This document shows, one piece after another, positions 293 through 64,000 of a DNA stretch of 64,000 nucleotides. The notes below the pieces were generated by a model. That model did not search any database. It was not told the DNA's origin and saw only the letters and a program-made list of their open reading frames with translations. Each line of letters begins with the position of its first letter. The first letter of the stretch is position 1. Both the position numbers and the translations under genes were made by a program. Origin of the DNA: Octopus vulgaris (Eukaryota); NCBI GenBank assembly GCA_951406725.2, contig OX597837.1:43958001-44022000 (forward strand), given 5' to 3'.

Positions 293-506
293 CGTTTCCA
301 ATGTTAACAAAGAATGTAAGGATTGTTCAGCCGGATCAAAGGAATAAACGTGATCCACGGTTACTTTCAATGATACCATGACCGGTTGCAAGTAGTGCAT
401 TTGCGGGGCAACATTTTTGTCGTAATCTCGAAATAAGGCTCCCAGGGTTTGGGTAATCTCCTCGTAGGCTCGGTTTTGACGACCATCGGAGAGGTTTGCT
501 GTCAAC
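293..506 (-). CDS. Gene B exon 2: Cys-loop/AChBP-like ligand-binding domain N-terminus; gene continues beyond left edge
   Basis: Acceptor tctctttgatcgcag at 507, donor ACG|gtaagt at 292, phases 2 to 0. Encodes LTANLSDGRQNRAYEEITQTLGALFRDYDKNVAPQ..PVMV..DHVYSFD..EQSLHSLLTLET, the LF.DYDK..P..PV.V pattern of pLGIC N-termini. 28/60 identical, ungapped, to gene A exon 2. Confidence 0.9.
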
Positions 507-31778: not shown

Positions 31779-31843
31779 CCGAGAAGGACACAGACGAAGA
31801 GGGTTAAAGACACCCAGTTATAGAGGGTCACGGGTGGCTGCAT
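31779..31843 (-). CDS. Gene B exon 1 coding part: signal peptide MQPPVTLYNWVSLTLFVCVLLG
   Basis: aaaATG context, hydrophobic core, ends CTC GG|gtaggt (phase 2). This matches the phase-2 acceptor at 506 and gives ...FVCVLL-G-LTANLSDG/RQ. Implies a ~31.3 kb intron; no transcript evidence available. Confidence 0.72.
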
Positions 31844-33728: not shown

Positions 33729-33828
33729 NNNNNNNNNNNNNNNNNNNNNNNNNNNNNNNNNNNNNNNNNNNNNNNNNNNNNNNNNNNNNNNNNNNNNNNN
33801 NNNNNNNNNNNNNNNNNNNNNNNNNNNN
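33729..33828. other. Assembly gap (100 N)
   Basis: Run of exactly 100 N. Confidence 1.
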
Positions 33829-38189: not shown

Positions 38190-39000
38190 GTGGCGACAAA
38201 TATTACTTTTGAAAACTCTGAGTTCAATCTACTTATTGTATCGCATCAGCCACTTCGTGAAGGCCCCATGGAAGCCTTCCAAAGTAAAGGTGTTCCGGAT
38301 CCTCTTCAAAGCGTCCTTCATCTTTTAAAGGTCTTCATAATTATTGCCCCTGATGTTCTCCTTCAGCTAAGAGGACAACCAAAGGTCTCAAGGAGCAAAG
38401 TATAGAGTTGTAATGACGGTTTTGAAGTCCATCTCTGTCATGTCATTGCTTACTAGGATGGAATTGTGGACTGATACATTGTATTGGAGCAAGGGCCCCG
38501 GCCTTTTGCGACGGAATCTTTTCTTGAACTCCCTCAAAACATTCACAAAGTAATCTTCGTCGACTGTAAGGCCAGTGGAAGCCCAGTGGATAAAGAGGAT
38601 CCCCTTACTGTTAAAATGGGATCATTATGAGTTCCCCGGTGAACTTGTTTGACTTGCCTTTTGTGTCAGCGAAAAATTGATGCTCGGCTCATACAAATTA
38701 ATCAATAAGCAGTCTGGAGAACTTCATAAGTTTCTGCAGAGTTTTTGCCCAGATTAACACAAAACTTCACTGCATAACGAGCTTCCAAATTGCCTTCACG
38801 TCCCGACTCCATTCTACGAAATAGTCAGCTGTAGCAAGCAATGTTTAGTAGCGTTTGTTCGTCTCCTTTAATCTAGAATAGCAAAAGTTGGCAGGTCAGC
38901 TTATTAGATATGTAGTAATGATATATTAAATTCACACTAATCTAAGAAGTTTTAATTGCTTCTTCTAAAAGAAACTTCAAAACTTCTAGAATGCAACTCG
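38190..39000 (-). mobile_element. Degenerate mariner transposase
   Basis: Minus-strand KGILFIHW..GLTVDEDYFVNVLREFKKRFRRKRPG..VHNSILV..FTKWLMRYNK with stops. Boundaries approximate. Confidence 0.7.
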
Positions 39001-46401: not shown

Positions 46402-46464
46402 ACCATTTCCTTTAATTGGAATTTACAACAACAGAAAAATAAATAAAATAGAAAATGTGGGATT

Positions 46465-46897
46465 TCAATATTGTGTCGGCACAACGGCCACACAAGATAA
46501 GACCATCAACCAAATACTCGTGGATAACCTAAGGGCTTTGTTGGCGTGAGAGAAACCTTCATTGTCTTTAGTCAATCTGATGCTACCGACAGCGGTTGGG
46601 ATATTAGTGGGAGTAGAATCGCTGGTTGAAGGCGATCTCGTAGAATGAAATTCGGTTTTTCTGCTAACATTCCAGAAGTGGTTGCTAAACGATTCGGCCA
46701 CGGAAAATCTTGTCAGCTGCAGTTGTTCCTCGGAACTTTTGAATGGAGTCGAAGCGAAAAGATAGCTACACGCATGGGTTTCATTAGTGAGGGCGGTGGG
46801 ACAAAATGTCTTCACAGAAACCTTCCGGTGCCAAACTAGGTTGCCTTGGTATTCGAGGTAGATTGTGTGCTCTTCTAAATCTTCAGGCTGAGCTAGA
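46465..46897 (-). CDS. Gene A terminal exon: rest of ligand-binding domain with Cys-loop, plus hydrophobic C-terminal tail and stop
   Basis: Acceptor tactttcag in phase 2; 143 codons to TGA. G.LVW, KTFCPTALTNETHACSYLFAS (Cys-loop), SNHFW, SIRLTK (beta10), then DNEGFSHANKALRLSTSIWLMVLSCVAVVPTQY*. Confidence 0.9.
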
Positions 46898-46961
46898 CTG
46901 AAAGTACAAAATATATACGGAATATATATACAGTATTTATAGACAGCCCAATCGTAGTACA

Positions 46962-47032
<71 letters not shown>

Positions 47033-47142
47033 ACAGACACAGACACACACACACACACACAGACATACACACATTTACTCACGCACACACATAAAATTTT
47101 CATTTAATGACATAATATAATAGATATATATACTTATACGTA

Positions 47143-47924
47143 GGGCGGCGAGCTGGCAGAAACGTTAGCACGCCGGGCGAAATGCTTAGCGGTATTTCGT
47201 CTGTCGTTACGTTCTGAGTTCAAATTCCGCCGAGGTCGACTTTGCCTTTTATCCTTTCGGGGTCGATAAATTAAGTACCAGTTACGCACTGGGGTCGATG
47301 TAAACGACTTAATACCTATGTCTGTCCTTGTTTGTCCCCTCTATGTTTAGCCCCTTGTGGGTAATAAAGAAATAGGTATTTCGTCTGCCGCTATGTTCTG
47401 AGTTCAAATTCCACCGAGGTCAACTTTGCCTTTCATCCTTTCAGGGTCGATTAAATAAATACCAGTTACGCACTGGGGTCGATATAATCGACTTAATCCA
47501 TTTGTCAGTCATTGTTTGTCCCCTCTGTGTTTAGCCCCTTGTGGGTAGTAAAGAAATAGGTATTTCGTCTGCCGCTACGTTCTGAGTTCAAATTCCACCG
47601 AGGTCAACTTTGCCTTTCATCCTTTCAGGGTCGATTAAATAAATACCAGTTACGCACTGGGGTCGATATAATCGACTTAATCCATTTGTCAGTCATTGTT
47701 TGTCCCCTCTGTGTTTAGCCCTTGTGGGTAGTAAAGAAATAGGTATTTCGTCTGCCGCTACGTTCTGAGTTCAAATTCCGCCGAGGTCGACTTTGCCTTT
47801 CATCCTATCAGGGTTGCTTAAATAAGTACCAGTTACGCACTGGGGTCGATGTAATCGACTTAATCCGTTTGTCTGTCCTTGTTTGTCCTTTCTATGTTTA
47901 GACCCTTGTGGGCAATAAAGAAAT
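47143..47924 (+). mobile_element. SINE family 1 tetramer (~184 bp period)
   Basis: Units start ggtatttcgtctg at 47191, 47375, 47559, 47742; flanked by atatatacttata direct repeats. Confidence 0.9.
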
Positions 47925-48740
47925 ATATATACTTATAAGTGCTCGGTTTAGTTTACCACTAAAACACCGGCTTGAACTCTAAAGGCGGTGTTGAAATTGC
48001 CTATCAAAAATTGTTAAAAGTGGCTCACCATTGAGAGGGCAGATATATCGTAGAAATGGAGAATGAACAAGCCCTATATTTATGTGCGGTGGGGTGTCCA
48101 AATTAACGTGGATGTTTCGTTAGAAAACAGAACACTACGTTGTTTACCCAAGGAGAACGTCTCATGGTTGCGTGGTGCAAAAAATAAGCAAATCCAATGA
48201 TCTAAATAGGAGTGTTTTTGTGCACCACAAGTCCTTATGAGAGGTTCTCTCATGGTAAATAATGCTCAAGGATACATGTTGGCCGGTTCACGAATCGAAA
48301 CCACAATCTTATTTCTTTATTGCCCACAAGGGGCTAAACGAAGAGGGAACAAACAAGGACAGACAAACGGATTAAGTCGATTATATCGACCCCAGGGCGT
48401 GACTGGTATTTATTTAATCGACCCCGAAAGGATGAAAGGCAAAGTTGACCTCGGCGGAATTTGAACTCAGAACGTAGCGGCAAACGAATACCGCTAAACA
48501 TTTTACCCGGCGTGCTAACGTTTCTGCCAGCGATCATGAGTATAATGCCCGAACCACTACGCCACGCACCTCCAAGATACAATAAATACCGAACTTAAAA
48601 TGAATCTTGGGGTCTATTCTTTCGACTGAAAATTCTTCAAGTTGATGCTCCAGTATGAGCGCAGACAAATGAGTAAAACGAGTAAAAAGTAATAAGATAG
48701 AAGATACTTTGATAATTTGATGGAATTATCAGAAACTTAC

Positions 48741-48841
48741 CCGTTCAGAAGAAATAGGTTAGGGGTCCAAACCCTTGCTTTTTGAGTATAGATACTTTGC
48801 AGTCTTTGAGGGTACCATGCAAGACGTCTATCAGACCATCT
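48741..48841 (-). CDS. Gene A exon 3 (101 nt, absent from ORF track)
   Basis: Acceptor ttttttcaag, donor AAC GG|gtaagt, phases 0 to 2. RWSDRRLAWYPQRLQSIYTQKARVWTPNLFLLNG matches the W.D.RL.W and W.P.(I/L)..N signatures of pLGICs. Confidence 0.93.
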
Positions 48842-48916
48842 CTTGAAAAAAAATGACGAGAGAGAAAAATTGAAATAGTCTTAGATGTATCACGTTATCA
48901 GGTGAATGGGGTTGTT

Positions 48917-49361
48917 GGATCATTTCGGTTTGAACGGCAGTTTTTAACATAATGTCTAGGTAACTAAAAAAATTTTAACTTCGTATACTGGTAGAATGTG
49001 TTTATAAAACATCTTTTTTTCTTGGCTTTATTGAGAAAATTCTATAGTTTGTAAGATATTTGCTGTTTTTTTTACTTCAATTTCTGCAATTTCAACCAAT
49101 CAATGACCGTCTATTGAGGTGAAAACATTCTGTAACGTATGAATATGTCCCCCGTTTAAGAAACAGACTGGGTTTATTTACATTTCTGAAGAAAAAGAGA
49201 TACCCTTCCCCCCACCCCTAACTCTAGCCCTAACCTTAACCCTAACTAACCCTAACCCAAAAACAGATTGAAATGCAATAGATCGATACTAGGGTCATAA
49301 TTATGGGTGACAATTTCATATGACACCGCTAGAAAAACTGACTTTCAAACCGAAAAGATCC
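48917..49361. mobile_element. MITE with ~29 bp imperfect TIRs and 8 bp TSD, in gene A intron
   Basis: GGATCATTTCGGTTTGAACGGCAGTTTTT...AAAAACTGACTTTCAAACCGAAAAGATCC; flanks gggttgtt/gggttgtc; internal CCCTAA-like repeats. Confidence 0.8.
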
Positions 49362-50014
49362 GGGTTGTCTTTTATGAATTTAATGGAATGTAAATAATCG
49401 CTGATTGACGAATGAAATGGAAGAAGGACAGAGAGGAGGAAGATGAGGCGGAGGAAGAAGAGAAATAGGGAAGAAAAGGTGAAGAAGTAAAGGAATAGAA
49501 GCAGCAGCAGCGGTGGTGGTGGATTAGAAGAAGAAGGGGAAGGTGAAGAAGAAGAAGAAGAAGAAGAAGAAGAGAAGAAGAAGAAGAAGAAGAAGAAGAA
49601 GAAGAAGAAGGGGAAGGTGGAAGAAGAAGAAGAAGAAGAAGAAGAAGAAGAAGAAGAAGGGGAAGGTGGAAGAAGAAGAAGGGGAAGGTGGAAGAAGAAG
49701 AAGAAGAAGAAGAAGAAGGGGAAGGTGGAAGAAGAAGAAGGGGAAGGTGGAAGAAGAAGAAGGGGAAGGTGGAAGAAGAAGAAGAAGAAGAAGAAGAAGA
49801 AGAAGAAGAAGAAGAAGAAGAAGAAGAAGAAGAAGAAGAAGAAGAAGAATGAGGAAGAAGAAGTAGAAGAAGAAGATGGGGAATATGGAAGACGAAGAAG
49901 GAGAAGAAGAAGAACCGAGAAAGAATTTCAGAATCCATAAGAAGTGTGATGCCATCTTGTGTAAGATAAACATATGAAGAACATAGTTAATTAAAATGGT
50001 TAATTAAAACTGAC

Positions 50015-50231
50015 CAGGCTAAGAGAGAGTAATGAGTGCAGCATTTGATTGGTGACGTCGAAGTTGTATATGTGGTCCAGAGTGGCCTCCATCCTCACCA
50101 GAACCGGTTCCGTGTGGTTGGGTTGAGGCCGGATGCGCTTGTCATATTCGACGAACATCGTGTTGTAAATCTGGGACGCTTCTTCGTAGGCGCGCACTTC
50201 TCGGTTCGACGACGTCGCTCCGACCATGATC
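50015..50231 (-). CDS. Gene A exon 2 (first exon found): Cys-loop/AChBP-like ligand-binding domain N-terminus
   Basis: Acceptor ttactgcag at 50232, donor CTG|gtcagt at 50014, phases 2 to 0. IMVGATSSNREVRAYEEASQIYNTMFVEYDKRIRPQPNHTEPVLVRMEATLDHIYNFDVTNQMLHSLLSLSL contains YDKRIRP, PV.V and D..NQ.L motifs. Confidence 0.92.
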
Positions 50232-50272
50232 CTGCAGTAACAACAACAACAATAATAATAATAACAACAATG

Positions 50273-50326
<54 letters not shown>

Positions 50327-51113
50327 GTAATCATAATAATAATAATAATAATAGGAGGAGGAGGAGGAGGAGGAGGAGGAAGAAGGGGAAGAGAGCTGGT
50401 GGTAGTGGTGGTGCTGGTGGTAGTAGTAGTAGTTGGATGAGGAGGAGGAGGGGGAGGAGGAAAAGGAGAAGCAGCAAGAGGATGGGCTTTTTACAGTTTT
50501 CGTCCGCCAAATCCACTCACAAGGATTTGGTCGGCCTAAGGCTATAGTAGAAGACACTCGCCTACGGTGCCACGCAGTAGGACTGAACTCAGAATCATGT
50601 TGTTGAGAAGCAAGCGTCTTACCACCAGCCAAGTCTGCGCCTATGTGTATAATTTCTGCCCGCATGTGCGTACAAGCGTGTGTCTCTGTTTATTCCCAGT
50701 TTCGAAAAGTTCTGTCGCCAACACAACTTCAATCAGCTGTACTCTATCACCACAACTTTCTCTCACTCTTTCTTCATACTTCTGCCACAAAGCAGAGGAA
50801 CCATGGTGTAACCCACTATGGTGTGGTAAAACTTTCAGTCCCTAGTCTAGATTGCGAATCCTCTGTACCCCAGGAGGGTTCAGCTCTCCACCCGTTAAAA
50901 GCTACCGTTTACTGAATGAGGACAACAACGTAGCTTTCGCGCCCGTGCAACCTCCAGTCATTCGCGTGTAGTGGGTGGTTTCTTAGTAGCTTAGAGTAGG
51001 CTCGAATTAGAGATTATTCTTTGTGGCTAATGGCGTGAGTCCTGATTGGAAGAAGAAGAAGAAGAAGAAGACAACAGCAACATCTTGTGAAAGTCGATAT
51101 TAAAAATTTATTT

Positions 51114-51929
51114 AAGGCGGCGAGCTGGTAGAAACTTTAGCACGCCGGGCGAAATGTTTAGCGATATTTCGTCTGCCGTTACGTTCTGAGTTCAAATTCC
51201 ACCGAGGTCGACTTTGCCTTTCATCCTTTCGGGGTCGATTAAATAAGTACCAGTTACGCACTGGGGTCGATGTAATCGACTTAATCCGTTTGTCTGTCCT
51301 TGTTTGTCCCCTCTGTGTTTAGCCCCTTGTGGGTAGTAAAGAAATAGATATTTCGTCTGCCGTTACTTTCTGAGTTCAAATTCCGCCGAGGTCGACTTTG
51401 CCTTTCATCCTTTCGGGGTCGATTAAATAAGTACCAGTTACGCACTGGGGTCGATATAATCGACTTAATCCGTTTGTCTGTCCTTGTTTGTCCCCTCTGT
51501 GTTTATATAGGAGCACTCCGTCGGTTACGACGATGAGGGTCCCAGCTGATACGATCAACGGAACAGCTTGCTCGTAGAATTAACGTGCAAGTGGCTGAGC
51601 ATTCCACAGACACGTGTACCCTTAAAGTAGTTCGCGAGGAGATTCAGCGTGACACAGAGTGTGACAAGGCTGGCCCTTTGAAATACAGGTACAACAGAAA
51701 CAGGAAGTAAGAGTGAGAGAAAGTTGTGGTGAAAGAGTACAGCAGGGTTCACCACCACCCCCTGCAGGAGCCTCGTGGAGCTTTTAGGTGTTTTCGCTCA
51801 ATAAACACTCACAATGCCCGGTCTGGGAATCGAAACCGCGATCCTACGACCGCGAGTCCGCTGCCCTAACCACTGGGCCATTGCGCCTCCACCCTCTGTG
51901 GTTAGCCCCTTGTGGGTAGTAAAGAAATA
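51114..51929 (+). mobile_element. SINE family 1 dimer with nested family 2 SINE (about 51505-51891, minus)
   Basis: Outer 18 bp TSD gatatta(a/g)aaatttattt; inner duplication cctctgtgNtta. Confidence 0.88.
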
Positions 51930-52590
51930 GATATTAGAAATTTATTTTACTCATCGTTCCGGTAGACTTCGACATTCCAAAGTCTAAGGTTTCGTTTTCA
52001 ATATCTCATTTTATTTTTGTTTGTTTGTTGTTTCTTTGTGATTTGTTGTTTATTTTATTTTCCTTATCTTATTTTTGCCTTTCTTACGTTTCGGTGGTGT
52101 GGGCGGTGTTGGTTCGTTTGTGGCGGCGGTGCAGCTTCCTATTATAGTCTCTAGGACTTATCTTGGTATGATCAGCTGACTGGTGTCATATGATATACTA
52201 GAGCAAAACTAGTGAAAGCATGAATGTATGTATACGAGAAATGTCGGGTGTGTATACACACACACACATATACACAAACACACATACACACACAGATACA
52301 CACACACATGTACTCACACATATACAAATGTATGCATATATATATACACACACGTACATGCATACATACATATACGTACGCACACACATACACACACATA
52401 CATACACATATACCCATATACAAATGTATGCATATATATATATATACACACACACATGCATGCATACATACACACACATACATACATACATACATACATA
52501 CGTACGTACGTACATACATACATACGTACATACATACATACATATATACATACATACATACATACACACATACGTACGTACATACATACA

Positions 52591-52624
<34 letters not shown>

Positions 52625-52973
52625 CAAATGTATGCATATATATATATACACACACATACATGCATACATACACACACATACATACATACATACATACATA
52701 CATACATACATACGTACGTACGTACGTACGTACGTACATACACACATACGTACATACGTACATACATACATACATACATACATACATACATACATACATA
52801 CATACATACATACATACATACATACATGAATGCATGCATGCATGCATACACATATATATACACTCAGGGCTCGAGCAAGTGTGCCTGAATGCTAAACATG
52901 CGTCTGGATACAAGTGTATGGGGTATATGATATATGTGTGTGTAGGAGGGTGTACACATAAATACATGTGTGT

Positions 52974-53019
<46 letters not shown>

Positions 53020-53368
53020 ATGAATACATAGGACTTGATTGCTGTATGTGCATTTGTAATTAAGTATATGGATTACAGGATGAAATATATACACGAAAAT
53101 TAGTGTTTGTACGGATATAATTGAGCGTGTTTCATATTTCAAAATGGCTGTATATATTGATATAGGTGTGTAAGTGATCACGTGATTGTATCTATGCGCG
53201 TCACTGGTTTCAAGTTTAGTTTGACAGCTCAGCAAATCTACTTAACTAGACTCATATGCGTACGCGCGTATGTTTATGTATGTATAGAGATATAGATGCA
53301 CATGCGTCTGTGTTTACGTATACATGTGCACACCCTTGCATATATGTATCTATATATACATACATACC

Positions 53369-53452
<84 letters not shown>

Positions 53453-53470
53453 TATTTACATGTTCGGTTC

Positions 53471-53742
53471 TTCTTGAAAAACCTTACCTTATCAAAAATA
53501 TTTTTAAAAGTTAAGTGTAATAAGAAAAAGTTCATAATTTTTTTTTACTAGTCTCAACAGAGTCCACGTGGTGGTGTTTTATGGGTGGGGGAGCATAACG
53601 GCTGTCTTGTGCGTTGACTAGAATCGTTGGCTGTAATCGTGAAAACGTGGACTCTGTTGAGACTAGTAAGAAACAATTATGAACTTTTTCTATTACACTT
53701 AACTTTAAAAATATTTTTGATCAGGTTCGTTTTTTTCAAGAA
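53471..53742. repeat. Fold-back element: ~98 bp inverted arms around ~76 bp spacer
   Basis: 53471-53569 is the imperfect reverse complement of 53645-53742; inner actagtctcaacagagtccacgt pairs perfectly. Confidence 0.85.
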
Positions 53743-53819
53743 AATTAAAATTTATTTTTACATAGTGGCATTTTCAAACTTCTTTTTCATAAATACGTAC
53801 CCACTCGTATGCCACCTGC

Positions 53820-53880
<61 letters not shown>

Positions 53881-53943
53881 CACCAGGTGGTGCTATTAAG
53901 TTAGACATGGCCTGGGCCAATAATGGCCGAAGTATACTCTACT

Positions 53944-54375
53944 CACAGTATCCTGCAAAAGTCTCCGGCCACTTTAAACTATAGTAATTTTCTACTAACT
54001 GCCAACTTATAAGTGGATGTTTCGCATCGCGTTTCTTACAGATGAAACATCTCCTTTGTTGGAGTCATTTCCGTACCTAATTATTGTATTCTGAATGAGA
54101 CAGCCAGACTCTGTTGTGTTGCCCGCGATCTCTGGCATGGAGCCCCGTCATACCTTCATCCAAGTCTGGAACCAAATTGTCCTTCAGTAACTGGATGTAT
54201 TTGACACTATTCAAGTTACCGTTAATTTTAACCAACTTTCTGAAACTATCACTTTTTATGTATCTCCAAAGCATCAGACTACAACCCCAACCCCACGCAA
54301 ACTTCACTGTTTTCGTTGTGTAACGTGGGTCGTTTCGCTTTCCTGGAGGCTTTCTGACAAATTCTCGCTTATTAG
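53944..54375 (-). mobile_element. Tc1-like transposon remnant with one TIR-like end
   Basis: VRKPPGKRNDPRYTTKTVKF..SLMLW..LVKINGNLNSVKYIQLLKDNL; cacagtatcctgcaaaagt end at 53944. Confidence 0.8.
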
Positions 54376-54385
54376 ATATATACAT

Positions 54386-54445
<60 letters not shown>

Positions 54446-54552
54446 ATATTATATATATATATATATTAAACTGTATTGACCAGACAATCGGATGTTGGTA
54501 AACATCGCTTGTCACAATGCGCTTCGCCACCCCACAGGCTAGGCCAGTAGGT

Positions 54553-54678
<126 letters not shown>

Positions 54679-55608
54679 GTGTGTGTGTGTTTGTGTGTGT
54701 GCGGGTGGGTGGGTCTATATACACACCCACACACACATATATATATAATAAGTATTTGCGTGTCTGCTTGAGGACTACGTCATTGGAATACATGCCTGCG
54801 GAATACTCAGCCACCTATATGCTAATTTAATGAGCAGATAGTTCAGCTGATAGAAGAATTGAATACAATCTTTGATAATAGTGAGTATGTGTGTGTGTGT
54901 GTGTGTATGTGTGTGTGTGTGTGTGTGTTTGATTTGCGATCGTGTGTTCGATTCCCGGGCCAAGCGGCACGTTGTACCCGTGAGCAAAACTCTTCATTCC
55001 ACGTCACCCCGGCCCACTGCCACTGCAGTCTTATCTCCCTCCAGCAGTTACATCCTGGATATTATTCCTTTCGGTCAAGGACGGGACACTCCGGGATAGT
55101 GTCTCTTTCTCCTCACGAGTGCACACCTAAAACAATTAGCAAAGGTAATGGCATATAGTGTGGAGGCGCGTGGCTGAGTGGTTAGGGTGTCACCACCATG
55201 ATCGTAAGATTGTGGTTTCGATTCCTGGACAGGGTGACGCGTTGTGTTCTTGAGCAAAACACTTCATTTCACGTTGCTCCAGTCCACTCAGCTGGCAAAA
55301 ATGAGTAACGCTGCAATGGACTGGTGTCCCGTCCAACTGGGGAACACATACGCCATTGAAACCGGGAAACCGGGCCCATAGGCTGGCTAGGCTTTAAAAA
55401 GGCGCATTTATTTAGTGGAGGTGCAATGGCCTAGTGGTTAGGTTGTTGAACTCATGATCTTAAGGTTGTGGTTTCGATTCCTGGACCGGGCGATGCGTTG
55501 TGTTCTTGAGCAAAACACTTCATTTCACGTTGCTCCAGTTCACTCAGCTGGGGAACATATACGCCACAGAAACTGGGAAACTGGGCCCATGAGCCTGGCT
55601 AGGAAATA

Positions 55609-55679
<71 letters not shown>

Positions 55680-55708
55680 TATCTATCTATCTACATATAT
55701 ATAATATA

Positions 55709-55747
<39 letters not shown>

Positions 55748-55750
55748 ATA

Positions 55751-55832
<82 letters not shown>

Positions 55833-55834
<2 letters not shown>

Positions 55835-56245
55835 CGTAGGAGTGGTTGTGTGGTAAGTAGCTTGCTTACCAACCACATGGTTCCGGGTTTGGTCCCACAG
55901 CGTGGCACCTTGGGCAAGTGTCTTCTACTATAGCCTTGGGCCGACCAAAGCCTTGTGAGTGGATTTGGTAGACGGAAACTAAAAGAAGCCCGTCGTATAT
56001 ATGTGTATATATATGTGCATGTATGTGTGTGTATATGTTTGTGTATCTGTGTTTGTCCCTCCAACATCGCTTGACAACTGTTTACGTCCCCGTAACTTAG
56101 CGGTTCGGCAAAATACACCGATAGAATAAGTACTAGGCTTCCAAAGAATAAGTCCTGGGGTCGATTTGCTCGACTGAAGGCGGTGCTCCAGCATGGCCGC
56201 AGTCAAATGACTGAAACAAGTAAAAGAGAGTAAAGAGTAAAGAGT
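55833..56245 (+). mobile_element. SINE family 3 copy (others at 37477, 58964 on +; 60050-60443, 50480-50640 on -)
   Basis: Head ggcgtaggagtgg..ggtaag..gggtt..gtccc, internal microsatellite, tail ggcggtgctccagcatggccgcagtcaaatgactgaaac plus gagtaaa repeats. Confidence 0.85.
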
Positions 56246-56426
56246 AAATATATATATATTAAACTTCTTTTAAGAAATCTTATTTATTCACTTCCCTCGC
56301 TTTCAATCCGTGCTAATGGAGCAAATAACTGCAGTTCTTACAGCTATTTTGGCGTCTATTTCTAGCATGTGGCGCTAATCATTAGTGCCTTTAGTATTAT
56401 AATTATATTTATATAATTATATATAC

Positions 56427-56464
<38 letters not shown>

Positions 56465-56637
56465 CCGATAGAATAAGTACTACGCTTACAAAGAATAAGT
56501 CCTAGGGTCGATTTGCTCGACTAAAGGCGGCGCCAGCATGCCGCAGTCAAATGACTGAAACAAGTAAAAGGGTAAAGAGTAAGTAAATGAGTCCCAGGAA
56601 ACTGAACCGGTGAGTGTGCTAAACAATGTCCCCAGAC

Positions 56638-56690
<53 letters not shown>

Positions 56691-56816
56691 AGACCTAACT
56701 TCAGTCGTGATTTAAGATGATGAGTACTCATCAGCCAATTATAGAGGTTTTCCATTAATACAAAAATTTTCAAGTCAAGTGGCAACATCATAGTGAAGGT
56801 AGATATGCAAAGATGT

Positions 56817-56871
<55 letters not shown>

Positions 56872-56872
<1 letters not shown>

Positions 56873-58407
56873 CTCCCAGTCAACTTGAAAGAGGGGGTAA
56901 TATGCCCTATCCATAAGGGAGGTAGCAGAGCAGATGCTAAAAATTATAGGCCTATCTCTCTGACCTCACACATCAGCAAAGTCATGGAACGAATAGTCCG
57001 TAAGAAACTAATCATGTTCCTTGAAGAAAATGACTTGCTGTCTGACACCCAGCATGGATTTCGACCAGGTAGAGGCTGCCTAACACAGCTCCTGCAACAC
57101 TATGACTGGGTGTTGAAACAGCTACTAAATGGCTCAAATGTGGATGTAATATATCTCGACTTTGCAAAAGCCTTTGATAAAGTCGACCATGGTATGATCT
57201 GTCACAAACTGCGTGGTCTCGGCATAGGCGGGAAACTTGGAGAGTGGCTGCACAACTTCCTAAAAGACAGAAAACAGGCAGTTGTGAGCAATGGAGCCAC
57301 CTCCAAGGAAACGCAAATAACAAGCGGTGTCCCACAGGGCACTGTCTTGGGGCCACTGATGTTCATAGTGGCCCTTTCAGACATGCCTTCAGTTGCTACG
57401 ATGACCACCTCTTGCTAGCTATGCAGATGACACAAAAGTCTCCCACGCAATACAAAACCCTGAAAATATTGCGCATCTGCAACATGAGCTGGACACAATA
57501 TACAGGTGGGCTGAGGACAACAACATGCAGTTTAATGCAGGTAAGTTCCAGGCCCTGCGCTATTGGCACACAAAGGTAAATGACGTGAAGACTGGATACA
57601 CTGGCCCAGGAAGAATTGCAATCCCTGAGTCAAAATCAGTGCGTGACCTGGGCATTGACATGAGCAATGATGCGTCTTTCCAAATGCATATTGCTAATCT
57701 GGTGATAAAATGCAGACGGCTAGCTGGATGGATTCTCCGAACTTTCAGAACAAGAGAGAAGGAGACACTGATGGTCCTATGGAAAACATTCGTCCTCAGC
57801 CGCTTGGACTACTGCTCCCAACTTTGGTCACCACACAATATAAAACAAACAGCAGAACTCGAAGCAATTCAGAGAAGCTACACAAAGAAAATCGTCTCAA
57901 TGCAAAATATCAGCTACTGGGAAAGACTGAAGGTATTAAACCTCTTCTCCCTGGAGCGGAGGCGGGAGAGATATGCAGTGATATACATCTGGAAAATCCT
58001 GGAGGGTCTTGTCCCAAACTATGGCATTCAAAGTTACTCCAACCGCAGAACGGGCGCCGCTGCGTGGTGCCAAGGATTCCAACATCACCATCAAAATACA
58101 GGTCCAGATACTGCAACAGCTTGGGTTTCAGAGGACCACAGCTCTTTAACATCCTCCCTAAATGCCTGAGAGACTTACATGGTGTGGATGTGGGTTTCTT
58201 TAAAACTAAACTGGATCTCTTCTTGTTGGGAGTCCCAGATGAACCTACCTCACGACAGGGGACGCGGATGCGGGCAGCAGCATCGAACTCCCTTGTTGAT
58301 CAAGTGCCACGTATCAGAGGTGGATTCACAAACTAGTGTAGCTCATTCAGCGGTGGTGCCCCAGCATGGCCGCGGCCTTCGGGCTAAAACATTTTTAAGG
58401 ATTTAAG

Positions 58408-58412
<5 letters not shown>
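56872..58412 (+). mobile_element. 5'-truncated CR1-like LINE ORF2 (reverse transcriptase) with two frameshifts and 3' tail
   Basis: NYRPISLTS, QHGFRPGR, YLDFAKAFDKV, GVPQGTVLGP, YADDTK after a frameshift near 57410, RLDYCSQLW, SLERRRER. Second frameshift near 58050, stop at 58336, tail tttaaggatttaaggatt. Confidence 0.95.
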
Positions 58413-58459
<47 letters not shown>

Positions 58460-58868
58460 TCATATCTTGAGTTCTATTTTCTCGTTTGCATCACTAAACC
58501 TATATGTTAACACACACATAGACACACGCACATGCACATATACACATATACCCGGTGCGTTGCACAAAAGGGGTTTCTGTTGTAACACATACTGCTGATA
58601 TAGCATATATAGATATTTCCTGATGAGTCAAGCAGGCCACCTGGACGGTAGGACACGTAGCTGCCTGCCTACGAAACTCTGAGTAATAGACGTGGGAGTC
58701 AGTCAAGGCATTATTTTTACTCTTAGTGTTCTTCCTTTTCTTTTTATGTCAATTCGGATGTGTACAGATGTGCGTGCGTGTCTATGTGTATGTATATGAG
58801 CGTATATGTCCGTGTGTATATGTATGGGTATGCATAAATGTACGTCTGTGCACGTATGTGACCATAAC

Positions 58869-58900
<32 letters not shown>

Positions 58901-58923
58901 ATGTGCACGTATGTGAGCATAAC

Positions 58924-58961
<38 letters not shown>

Positions 58962-61096
58962 ATAGGAGTGGTCGTGTGGTAAGAAGCTTGCTTACCAACC
59001 ACATGATTCCGGGTTCAGTCCCACTGCGTGACACCTTGGGCGAGTGTCTTCTACTATAGCTTCTGGCCAATCAAAGCTTTGTGAGTGGATTTGAGAGACA
59101 GAAACTGAAAGAAGCCCGTTGTGTGTGTGTGTGTGTGTGTCAGTCTTTGACCTCCTCCACCACTTAATAACCGGTGTTGGTGTGTTTACGTCACCGTAAC
59201 ACTAGCGGTTCGGCAAAAGATATCGATAGAATGAATACCAAACTCAAAAAGATAAGTAATTGGGGGCGATACATTCCACTAAAAATTGTCGAAAGCGGTG
59301 CCCCAGTATGGCCACAGTCTTATGACAGAAACAAGTAAAAGATAAAAGACAAAAAACGAAATTTATTCTTCTTCCTACGACACCCCAATTTTTCTAACGT
59401 TTTTCTGTTATGAATTGACTGCTTTGATCGCCTTCCTCTTCCTGTGATCGCAACTGTGATGCTTCGACATGTCGCGCCAGTATTGTCTCTCCTCCGTTTG
59501 CTTTGGTACGTTATTAGTTTCATGTCGTGTGTATCTCCTAATAACATCGGCGTAAAATAACCTGTTTTTAACCGAAGAACTCGAAGTAGATGAAGCTATG
59601 AATAATAATTTCTACTATAGGCACAAGACCTGGAACTTTGGGGGTCGCGGATTGATCAATTACATCGACCCCAGGGATCGATTCCTACTTATTTTATCGA
59701 CGTCCAAAAGATGAAAGGCAAAGTCGATTAACTGAAGAACTCGAAGTAGATGAAGCTATGAATAATAATTTCTACTATAGGCACAAGACCTGGAATTTTC
59801 GAGGTCGCGAACAGGTCAATTACATCGACCCCCTGGGCTCGTTTCCTCCTTATTTTATCGACGTCGAAAGGATGAAAGGCAAAGTCGATCTCGTAGGAAT
59901 TTGAAATCAAAACATAAAGACGGACAAAACGTCACAATGCATTTTTGTTCGGTGCCGTAAAGACGCTGACAACTGCCCAACCTGTATAAAGAATAAAGAT
60001 GTGGATAAAAAGGAAAACAAAGAAAATGATGGAATGGTCATAAATGGAATATCTTTCTCTCTTTCTCTTTTACTTGTTTCAGTCATTTGACTGCGGCCAT
60101 GCTGGAGCACCGCCTTTAATCGAGCAACTCGACCCCGGGACTTATTCTTTTGTAAGCCCAGTACTTATTCTATCGGTCTCTTTTGCCGAACCGCTAAGTA
60201 ACGGGGACATAAACACACCAGCATCGGTTGTCAAGCAATGCTAGGGGGACAAACACGGACACAAACATATATACATATATACGACGGGCTTCTTTCAGTT
60301 TCCGTCATCCAAATTCACTCACAAGGCTTTGGTCGGCCCGGGGCTATAGCAGAAGACACTTTCCCAAGATGCCACTCAGTGGGACTGAACCCGGAACCAT
60401 GTGGTTGGTAAACAAGCTACTTACCACACAGCCACTCCTGCGTCATAAATGGAATATATAGATATCTTCAATCAAGGTTACCCTAGGTCTGACCATCAAC
60501 AACAACAATACTAACAACAATAAGCGGAACATCAGGAAAGTCTACACCATGAGGTGTGGTAGAAAAATGCCAAAAAACGAACCCCATGGAGCAGAATGTT
60601 TTTCTTACGCAAAACAAAGTAAACATCCTTAATATACTCAAAGACATCTGAAGTAACAATATAAGCGCATAAGAGCATCTGCACGAGATTACCAGGCCCA
60701 ACCATATGTCTCCCCCACATACCGGCCTAGCCTGACTATCAAAACCACCCGCCCGCCCGCCCGCCAGCCCCCACCACCTGTTCGCTTCAGTTCGGCAATC
60801 TGGTCAACATGGCTGCGGCTGCTGCCAATTTATGATTTGCTGAAATGTAAACATGCGCATTCGATGAGATGTACGTGCCACCACCAGATGTCATGCATGT
60901 CTCCCACCTCGAGGTGCTTTATATCAGGTTCGATCCCTAGTCTATTCTTTGACGTATATATAAGTGTGTATATGAGTGTATTTATTTATATGTGTGTGTG
61001 CTTGTATGCGTGTATGTGTGTATGTACGTGTGCGTGTATGAATGTATATGTATATATGTGCATGTGTATGCGTGTGCAGGAGTGTATGCCTGCGTG

Positions 61097-61146
<50 letters not shown>

Positions 61147-61422
61147 TTTGTCTGTGTACGGAACGTATGTATATGTATATACGTGTGTATGTGTACGTAC
61201 GTTGGTGTGCGTGTGAGTACGTGTGTTGTGTGTGTGTGTAGGGGTGTAATTTGCTCGATTAGGTCACCAACTCCTGTGGGAGTCGTAGGTGTGCCGTGGT
61301 AACATACAGCTTGTGTTATGCATTTTCATTCAAGTGGAACCCGTCGCTCTTCAGGATATGGGCGTGTGTGGATCTTTACATATATTTATGAATATTATAT
61401 ACATGCATACATATATACGTAC

Positions 61423-61505
<83 letters not shown>

Positions 61506-62049
61506 TATGCGTTTGTGTGTGTGTGTATAATTGAGAACATTGGAGTCAGCAAGTAGGAGTATGGTTGGACATTTACTTTTTAACCCCTACAATTGTTTCC
61601 ACGCAATGTAGTTCTCCAGGCGTGCCGGTACTTGAATACACAAGTGCTCTCCTACCTTATGAGATTTAGTTGTGTTTTCTCAGGTAATATTTAAATATTG
61701 TCTTCGTAAGTTCAAAACCCTCGGCTTCAGGAACATCCAGTCTGTCTGTTGTGGCAAACATATATGTACATATATATTTACATATATATTTACATATATA
61801 TATGTATGATTTATATATAATATATAGTTATACATATGCATACAACATACTCATAAACATACATGTATATATCCTTTCTACTATAGGCACAAGACCTGAT
61901 ATTTGTGGAGAAGGAGATTACATCAACCACATCAACCACACTGTTCAACTGGTACTTATTTTATCGACCCCGAAAGAATGAAAGACAAAGCTGACCATGG
62001 CGGAATTTGAACTTAGAATGTAAATGTCACGAAGCATTTTTTCCGATGC

Positions 62050-62103
<54 letters not shown>

Positions 62104-63399
62104 TTGCTATTATGCAATGAGTGAGTGTGTGTGAAGAGGGGGTGTCTGTCTTCAAAAATCCAAAGTTGAGTAACATTTTCATGCTTGGATTTGTAAACTA
62201 CGATAAGAATAACACTGGTCAACAAAGAATTTGTCCCAAAGAAAAGAATACCAGTATCTTATATGTTTTTGCATGTAGAATTCAAAAATAGTGTCAAATT
62301 ATCTGTATCACCCACAGTTACTCTGTTCCACGATATCCCTTTCAGTTCCTGTTACGTGGACTAAACTTCAGTCAAACTGTTGAAATGTGAAGTTAACGGT
62401 TTAAGAAATACTCCTAATTTAAATTTTTATGCATAGAATTAACCTAGTGAAATCATAAATCCAGCCATCTGAGTCAATGAGTCCCTGAAGCTTGGCAATA
62501 CTGAGTCGATGAGTCACTGATGCTTTGTCAGTACTGTGCTTTGAAGCGTAGGTGTGTGGTTGTGTACTAAGTTCGTATATTCCATTCACCTTCATAATGT
62601 CAAGAAACTGTTTAAACATCGCAAACAACTTTTGCTATATGTGAAAAATATGTAAAATATTAAGACAATTGACGAAAAGTATCTGTAATAGAATTTTAAT
62701 TGATAAATATAAATTTTTATTAAAACAAAACACGAGGGTGAAGTAAATCCCGTGTTGTGAAGAATCAACACAACGTGCGGTTGTCATGGTAACAAGTTGT
62801 TAATGTCTCGCTGTCTGTTGATTGGCTAAAATTATCCAAATTTTCCAACTTTGATTCTAAATAACATCAGATTTTTTAATTTACGAGATAAAGTAATTGG
62901 TTGATTATAATAAAAATTCAGAGTTACATCGATACTCTAAAATCTGAGAAAGATTAAAGAGGGTTCATTTTGCGAATGAAAAAGACTAGATCCATATTAA
63001 CGATCATGGAGGTATGTTATGTGTGGGGGTAAGTTCACATTGGGATTTTTGGAAGAATTTACAAGTGCAGAAGAATTTGTGTTTACACATTGTGAAGGCT
63101 TCGTTGTGTTAAGCAATTGTGGTGAGTTATGGGTTAAAATTTTGAGGGCTTCTTTTAGGCAGAGTCCACAAGTGGTATTATTAAGAGTATTAGTAATAGT
63201 ATTATTTTCGGTAACGGTAATATCGCCATTGGCGGTAGTACTAGTATTATCGCTGCTATTATTATTAGTTGTAGTAGAGGTATTAGTAATTATAGTGGTT
63301 ATAGTATAGTTAATATTATTAGTATCAGTATTCCTATTGATACTACTGTTGGTTTCAACTGTGTGCCCATTTTCCTCCGAGGCACGGATTATGTATTAT

Positions 63400-63730
63400 C
63401 TATGTTTAAGTGTTAGGGCCTGGGGTGTTGGATATGTTATTGCGAGCGGTGTTTGTGTTTTCGTTGTGTAGGTCTATGGTAGGGTTGTATGCATTTAGAT
63501 AGTAAGAGCTAAGTTTACATTTGTTAGATGAGGTGATAATAGATTCTATATTTGGTGTAGATGAATAGGATAATTTCAAAGTGGATCTGTTAAAGATGGA
63601 ATGATATTTGTGGTTACGTGGGAAATTAGGGTCTACTATTTTGAAGAATGCTTTAGCGAAATCCTTGACGTTTAAAGGGAATGGAGGTTTGTACCAGAGA
63701 ATAGATCTCCCACCACTTTTATTAGGCAAA
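63400..63730 (-). mobile_element. Penelope-like element ORF fragment
   Basis: RSILWYKPPF..FFKIVDPNFP..H..IFNRSTLKLSYS..NIESII resembles the IIWFNPP...IFNRN.K.SYS linker of Penelope-like ORFs. Confidence 0.7.
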
Positions 63731-64000
63731 TTTGGGGAGGTGTAATTCCTTGTGCATGTTAGAAGAGAGTTGGAGGGTTTGATGTTAGTATTCTTAGATC
63801 GAGTCTTATGTGTGTGGGTGCTAGGCGGGTGAGGTTGCCTAATTATAGTGGGAAGATTTGGCTATCCAATATGCGGGTTCTCTCGTCTAGGGTTAAGTTT
63901 AGAGAGGTATTCCTTAGATCTAGTGTTGATTATAAATCTAATTTTCTGGAGATTTATAAGATTGGTTGCAGTAAGTGGCGTAATTATTGAAGATTTCTTC

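Follow-up and report, generated by a model that had tools for sequence, protein, structure and literature searches.

A 64,000 bp stretch of the Octopus vulgaris genome (GenBank assembly GCA_951406725.2, contig OX597837.1, positions 43,958,001 to 44,022,000; hereafter the window, in which positions are counted from the first base) carries a tandem pair of genes, A and B, both on the minus strand. Gene A is a member of the Cys-loop receptor extracellular domain (ECD) superfamily, as shown by its PF02931 profile matches and the predicted beta-sandwich fold of an ortholog. We propose, at a probability of roughly 0.6, that its product is a cell-surface protein with the fold of the acetylcholine-binding proteins (AChBPs), held by a glycosylphosphatidylinositol (GPI) anchor and recognizing a non-cholinergic ligand or partner, and that gene B encodes a diffusible sister protein. 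The likelihoods given below to alternative explanations overlap in part. Over their aligned parts, the window exons are identical to two NCBI O. vulgaris proteins, P0003 (gene A) and P0004 (gene B). The gene A product is 271 residues long, with numbering that counts the 22-residue signal exon of P0003, which lies outside the window.

Acetylcholine is bound in this superfamily by a box of aromatic residues that acts as a cation-pi site. A preliminary description of this locus, made by eye, held that the box is entirely replaced in gene A, and formal alignment bears this out. Ser91 occupies the position of the loop D Trp, Leu126 that of the loop A Tyr and Thr178 that of the loop B Trp, with pairwise comparisons and all three MAFFT modes of a 41-row alignment giving the same placements. 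Loop C has neither the vicinal Cys-Cys nor the tyrosines: depending on the mode, the first Tyr position is filled by Pro or Ser and the second by Ile227 or Pro, but never by an aromatic residue. These sequence-based alignments therefore put no aromatic residue on the gene A box. As a control, aromatics were found in the 14 canonical-type rows at loops D (11/14), A (10/14) and B (11/14). Register is least secure in loop C, which is rich in Ser, Thr and Pro and is poorly modelled in an ortholog (pLDDT ~52 for residues 211-220). More generally, the mapping of the box rests on aligned sequences, since the fold searches returned ranges and not residue pairs. A by-eye match of the Phe-His that begins loop C of gene A to the canonical loop C F-Y was rejected, as none of the three modes supports it or puts Phe-His on a box position. 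The loop E position is held by His151 and the pocket is polar. In gene B, loop D carries Thr, as also described earlier, but loop B of P0004 retains a Tyr.

Gene A thus lacks the features that define a nicotinic alpha subunit (the vicinal Cys-Cys of loop C and the Tyr/Trp box of loops A, B and C; the conserved pocket residues are listed in PMC3423370). Because the cation-pi box is wholly lost, gene A is likely not to bind acetylcholine through the classical site, and a new ligand or a role without a ligand is likely instead. Loss of the box is not peculiar to gene A, but is common to a whole molluscan family that includes land snail members (see below).

Channel subunits of this superfamily continue past strand beta10 into four transmembrane (TM) helices and carry a C-x13-C Cys-loop with an F/Y/W-P-x-D motif, which couples the ECD to the pore. 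Neither feature is present in gene A. Past beta10 its reading frame encodes approximately ten polar residues and a hydrophobic tail, reaches a TGA codon 35 residues beyond beta10 and contains no M1-M4; the span given in the preliminary description ended at 46597, short of both the tail and the stop. The Cys-loop is shortened to C160-x10-C171 and lacks the motif that is present in the channel-type matches. Because the frame runs directly from beta10 through the tail to the stop, the relatives have the same ending and the Cys-loop is short, we conclude that gene A is not a channel.

It seems very improbable that gene A is a decaying or shortened nicotinic subunit gene, or that TM exons located elsewhere are missing from its model. 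The public model P0003 is truncated, the sequence has diverged far (~15-20% identity with solved ECDs) and an assembly gap of 100 N (33729-33828) lies between genes A and B. Against such decay, however, the frame is intact and the same tail is found in P0001 (a database protein that carries a complete gene A-type last exon), in Argonauta and in snail relatives. The first exon of gene B stands 14.6 kb downstream, and no TM exon was detected among the 2888 open reading frames of the window (best E 0.06), in a weak test that clearly detected one of four control pieces.

The fold was examined with an AlphaFold model of P0002, the Argonauta ortholog (pLDDT 84.5), in which residues 37-238 form a complete ECD followed by a linker and a terminal 16-residue helix (247-262). 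Compared with whole ECDs, residues 37-238 gave Z scores of ~21 (20.6-21.5), with root-mean-square deviations of 2.8 over 197 residues for an AChBP chimera, 2.5 over 199 for the alpha9 ECD and 1.9 over 195 for the chemotactile receptor CRT1; these matches are tied. The gene B model is a compact ECD that ends at beta10 (pLDDT 86.3). Pfam analysis of P0002, P0004 and P0012 identified PF02931 only, and each of the three gene A exons in the window matches this profile, while the last exon alone had no match among solved sequences. Matches in the ESM Atlas (0.85 and 0.89, under 0.9) to a 214-member PF02931-only cluster, commonest in Mollusca, serve as leads only. A four-copy complex prediction for the P0002 ECD, in which the alignment was not used, scored 0.00 and gave no answer, and it is not counted as evidence.

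The C-terminus of gene A consists of Asn247-Lys-Ala, a polar spacer and a hydrophobic tail without a cytosolic segment, and a hand rule, rather than a trained predictor, reads this arrangement as a GPI signal. The N-K-A/G motif is positioned 25 residues from the end in all four gene A-lineage proteins (gene A, P0001, P0002 and P0084), despite an indel just upstream, and P0001 and the Argonauta hians proteins P0002 and P0084 (identical residues 129/241 and 131/245) share the gene A ending. By hydropathy, P0003, P0002 and P0004 have the hydrophobic N-terminus of a signal peptide. Across the family, 23 of the 27 members terminate in a hydrophobic tail that is followed by few charged residues or by none. 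The four tail-less members are the three rows of the gene B lineage and P0007, apparently a fused gene model. The gene B lineage nests beside the gene A lineage in the tree. The gene B product, which has no tail, is probably secreted. Outside the family, the AChBP-like protein P0080 keeps the loop D and loop B Trp, has no loop C Cys-Cys and ends in a GPI-signal-like tail; anchoring may therefore have arisen more than once.

The tail might instead stay uncleaved and span the membrane as one helix, perhaps left over from M1, although we regard this as unlikely. It is modelled as a helix in P0002, basic residues follow it in a few family members (P0036 and P0008), and genes of this kind have been counted as "LBD-TM" models, of which there are seven in O. 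bimaculoides (PMC6896357, Table 1). Gene A, however, has no cytosolic stop-transfer residues, its small-residue site is at a fitting distance, and the family tails do not resemble M1: against an M1-M3 profile they score at most 5.3 bits, while held-out channel segments score 9.6-42.1 bits (7/7).

To define the family, P0001 was compared with 1.84 billion representative proteins. Of the 81 matches, 23 were dropped because they matched only its repeat-derived N-terminus; many of those remaining are ECD-only proteins, mostly of 220-330 residues. P0003, P0006, P0026, P0044 and P0070, which are truncated, fragmentary or have a foreign C-terminus, were excluded from the 27-row counts and from the tree. 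In the 51-row tree, 26 rows, genes A and B among them, form one branch (SH-aLRT 98.6), with six soluble AChBP-like and 19 channel-type rows outside it (labels assigned from length and hydropathy). Named members of this clade come from O. vulgaris, Argonauta and the land snail Bradybaena similaris, in which two genes have close locus numbers. The pairs of close paralogs in Argonauta (P0002/P0084) and Bradybaena (P0015/P0083) suggest repeated tandem duplication. Five other proteins (P0031, P0037, P0049, P0063 and P0071) are soluble and AChBP-like, with a loop C Cys-Cys and short Cys-loops; in P0037, the aromatics of loops D, A and B are lost while loop C is kept.

Within the family, box aromatics are found in 0/26 members at loop D, 0/27 at loop A and 3/27 at loop B (gene B, its ortholog P0082, and P0066), while the loop C Cys-Cys is absent from all 27. 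As the loss is common to the whole family, including the snail members, it probably predates the snail-cephalopod split. Other positions are conserved in a family-specific manner. On the N-terminal helix, these are Glu39 (26/26), Gln42 and a Phe-His-Lys-Tyr motif; on the complementary face, they are an Asp at loop D (16/26) and a Lys or Arg at position 153 (26/27), where Pro is found in 6/14 canonical-type rows and Arg in GABA-A alpha2. Gene A has both Glu39 and Lys153. This pattern makes the helix motif and the remodelled complementary face candidate working surfaces.

Several known systems resemble gene A in part. The molluscan and annelid AChBPs (Lymnaea, Aplysia, Biomphalaria and Capitella) likewise have a signal peptide and one ECD of the same fold, with a shortened Cys-loop and no channel. 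They are, however, soluble and retain both the box residues and the disulfide of loop C (PMC3423370), whereas gene A has no box residues, lacks this disulfide, bears a tail resembling an anchor and, in the tree, stands on a separate branch from the six soluble AChBP-like rows. Secreted AChBP-like proteins have also been reported from snail-conditioned water (PMC9589101). With regard to box loss alone, a fully preserved principal site is found in 13 of 33 oyster alpha subunits (PMC6896357). Such loss is thus common among mollusc paralogs, and what is new here is that throughout the clade it is accompanied by the loss of the pore and by an anchor signal that has been conserved.

The preliminary description drew a parallel between gene A and the chemotactile receptors, noting that these have also lost the vicinal cysteines. 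CRT1 and CRB1 are indeed similar to gene A in being nicotinic receptor-derived, in lacking gating by acetylcholine, in their tandem arrangement and in the fold of the ECD. As a model for gene A, however, the parallel is not supported. These receptors are intronless pentameric ion channels (PMC11526382) with a hydrophobic pocket (PMC13174522), while gene A is interrupted by introns, lacks M1-M4 and has a shortened Cys-loop, a polar pocket and snail relatives; CRT1 also keeps a Tyr opposite Ser91. As the land snail has the family, it is not tied to the cephalopod chemotactile receptor expansion. The anchored ECD of gene A, or the secreted gene B product, could alternatively be an accessory or decoy subunit that co-assembles with nicotinic or chemotactile channels, or docks on them, and tunes their assembly or gating, its own pocket being vestigial. 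We consider this doubtful. It would accord with the retention of fold-core residues alongside free variation, from member to member, in loops A, B and C of the principal face, and with the place of CRT1 as third solved-structure match for P0003 (E 9e-10) and tied best structural match; GPI-anchored modulators of nicotinic receptors, such as Lynx1, are listed in the literature. Similarity to CRT1 is nevertheless no better than that to alpha6 or alpha3, the family has land snail members, and its invariant family-specific motif suggests a function of its own.

ACCBP (amorphous calcium carbonate-binding protein), an AChBP-derived protein of oyster and abalone (Pinctada and Haliotis) that was not identified among the matches, provides a precedent for the AChBP fold in a non-synaptic role, that of calcium carbonate binding, and is a soluble di-pentamer tied to shell growth (PMC3423370). 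By analogy, gene A could encode a glycosylated surface or mucus protein that engages mineral, metal or matrix without a pocket ligand. Three N-glycosylation sequons, the Ser/Thr/Pro-rich loop C of gene A and the conservation of His75, His201 and acidic residues in the family would fit such a structural role. We nonetheless judge it distinctly unlikely, given that the octopus has no calcified shell and that ACCBP, apart from being soluble, is described as still acetylcholine-responsive (PMC3423370).

The family may have been counted before without being described. The 18 "LBD" and 7 "LBD-TM" gene models of O. bimaculoides (PMC6896357, Table 1), a class found in lophotrochozoans, share their architectures with the gene A family, but are only counted there, and the main text of that paper contains neither "GPI" nor "binding protein". 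A phylum-wide survey of 2026 kept matches of at least 300 aa and at least 30% identity, which excludes most family members (PMC13174522, section 2.5). Because of this filter, and of the truncation of the public gene A model and its name "alpha-L1", the family has probably been overlooked. No mention of channel-less forms was found in PMC9068888 or bioRxiv 10.1101/2025.06.15.659772, and a literature search, with most subscription journals and all supplements outside its scope, found no description of the family or of a GPI-anchored Cys-loop ectodomain. Supplements of PMC6896357 and PMC13174522 may list family members.

If gene A is a GPI-anchored binding protein, it would most likely be exported and have its C-terminal signal exchanged for a GPI anchor near Asn247. 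The protein would then be displayed at the outside of the cell, probably assembled into a ring as other proteins with this fold are, and would bind a non-cholinergic ligand or protein partner either in its polar, remodelled pocket or by means of the apical helix that the family conserves. It would be unable to conduct ions or to signal alone, and would be a tethered counterpart of AChBP, with gene B as a secreted, diffusible sister without a tail. The following points weigh against this proposal. First, NCBI model P0003 (158 aa, named "alpha-L1") splices out most of the last exon, from a non-consensus donor at 46822 to a purine-rich acceptor at 46409 (minus strand), and so deletes the Cys-loop, loops B and C and the tail; this model may be a mis-annotation or a minor truncated isoform. 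Second, a hydrophobic tail of 15-19 residues could serve as an uncleaved membrane anchor. Third, the fold is predicted for orthologs rather than for gene A itself. Fourth, the tree comes from a quick search with SH-aLRT support only, and is made up of rows other than chemotactile receptor, Lymnaea or Aplysia AChBP and ACCBP sequences. Fifth, gene A has Ser at loop D where the family consensus is Asp, and the family may for this reason not share one ligand.

Testing the proposal should be straightforward, as gene B and a tail-less form of gene A are expected to give soluble proteins. The known channel-less Cys-loop ectodomains, the AChBPs, are soluble and retain the acetylcholine site; a conserved family with neither pore nor site, but held by a lipid anchor, would put the fold to a third use, that of a surface binding protein. 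A bolder extension, which we offer very tentatively and think doubtful, is that this is an ancient molluscan family of GPI-anchored channel-less ectodomains that has abandoned acetylcholine, forming a new class of cell-surface receptors or co-receptors, of which the tethered (gene A) and secreted (gene B) forms in cephalopods would capture or carry non-cholinergic cues and pass them to chemotactile or other Cys-loop channels in the manner of odorant-binding proteins.

The features of both genes are listed in Table 1. Gene A has at least three introns, two within the window and a third upstream. Its splice junctions recur in database proteins, exons 2, 3 and 4 being joined in P0003 and exons 3 and 4 in P0001, and its last exon is 90% identical to P0001 across the entire exon length. 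The donors used score 2.3 and 6.7, and no good donor was found in or just past the last exon (best 0.1 and 1.5). The first intron exceeds 13.7 kb. A scan of 50240-64000 for the first exon gave 12 weak candidates, none of which is the P0003 signal peptide. Because the DNA is AT-rich, the cluster of poly(A)-type signals past the stop is weak evidence. Gene B lies mostly outside the window and is represented in full by P0004; its first intron is ~31 kb in length (506-31779).

Table 1. Features of genes A and B in the window
Feature	Position	Strand	Content and basis
Gene A exon 2	50015..50231	-	End of signal peptide, N-terminal helix with family motif (Glu39), beta1-beta2; splice sites; PF02931 E 1.4e-6; identical to P0003 over aligned part
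Ser91, loop D Trp position	50024..50026	-	MAFFT and pairwise alignment with human alpha6/alpha3
Gene A exon 3	48741..48841	-	W-x-D-x-R-L-x-W block and loop A; splice sites; PF02931; junctions in P0001 and P0003
Leu126, loop A Tyr position	48746..48748	-	Pairwise alignment with solved human alpha subunits; MAFFT
Gene A last exon (exon 4)	46465..46897	-	Loop E, Cys-loop, loop B, loop C, beta10, linker, hydrophobic tail, TGA stop (46465); splice sites, reading frame, PF02931
Short Cys-loop, C160-x10-C171, no F/Y/W-P-x-D	46768..46803	-	Sequence comparison
Thr178, loop B Trp position	46747..46749	-	Alignment through P0001 (identical to gene A here); MAFFT
Loop C, Ser/Thr/Pro-rich, no Cys-Cys or Tyr	46600..46650	-	Alignments
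Ile227, second loop C Tyr position	46600-46602	-	MAFFT, 2/3 alignment modes
Asn247, candidate GPI attachment (omega) site	46540..46542	-	Hand rule, N-K-A/G
Hydrophobic tail, residues 253-267	46480..46524	-	Mean hydropathy 2.07 over 15 residues; then 4 uncharged residues and stop
Poly(A)-type signals, five AATAAA/ATTAAA	46367..46416	-	Cluster 50-100 nt past gene A stop
Gene B exon 1 (signal peptide)	31779..31843	-	Predicted before comparison with P0004; identical to P0004 residues 1-22
Gene B exon 2	293..506	-	Thr at loop D (302-304); remainder of gene B left of window

The window is otherwise repeat-rich animal DNA. ARAGORN found no tRNA gene. Fragments at 57405-58166 (+), 54080-54448 (-) and 63409-63861 (-) appear by eye to derive from LINEs or transposases and have no Pfam match, while a transposon remnant at 38391-38621 (-) shows a weak match to Pfam Transposase_1 (E 4e-4). 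A repeat of ~190 bases, SINE-like in its dispersal, has 21 matches of at least 120 bases (at 47144-47900, 48344, 51116-51500 and elsewhere), and some of its copies are arranged in tandem within the last intron of gene A.

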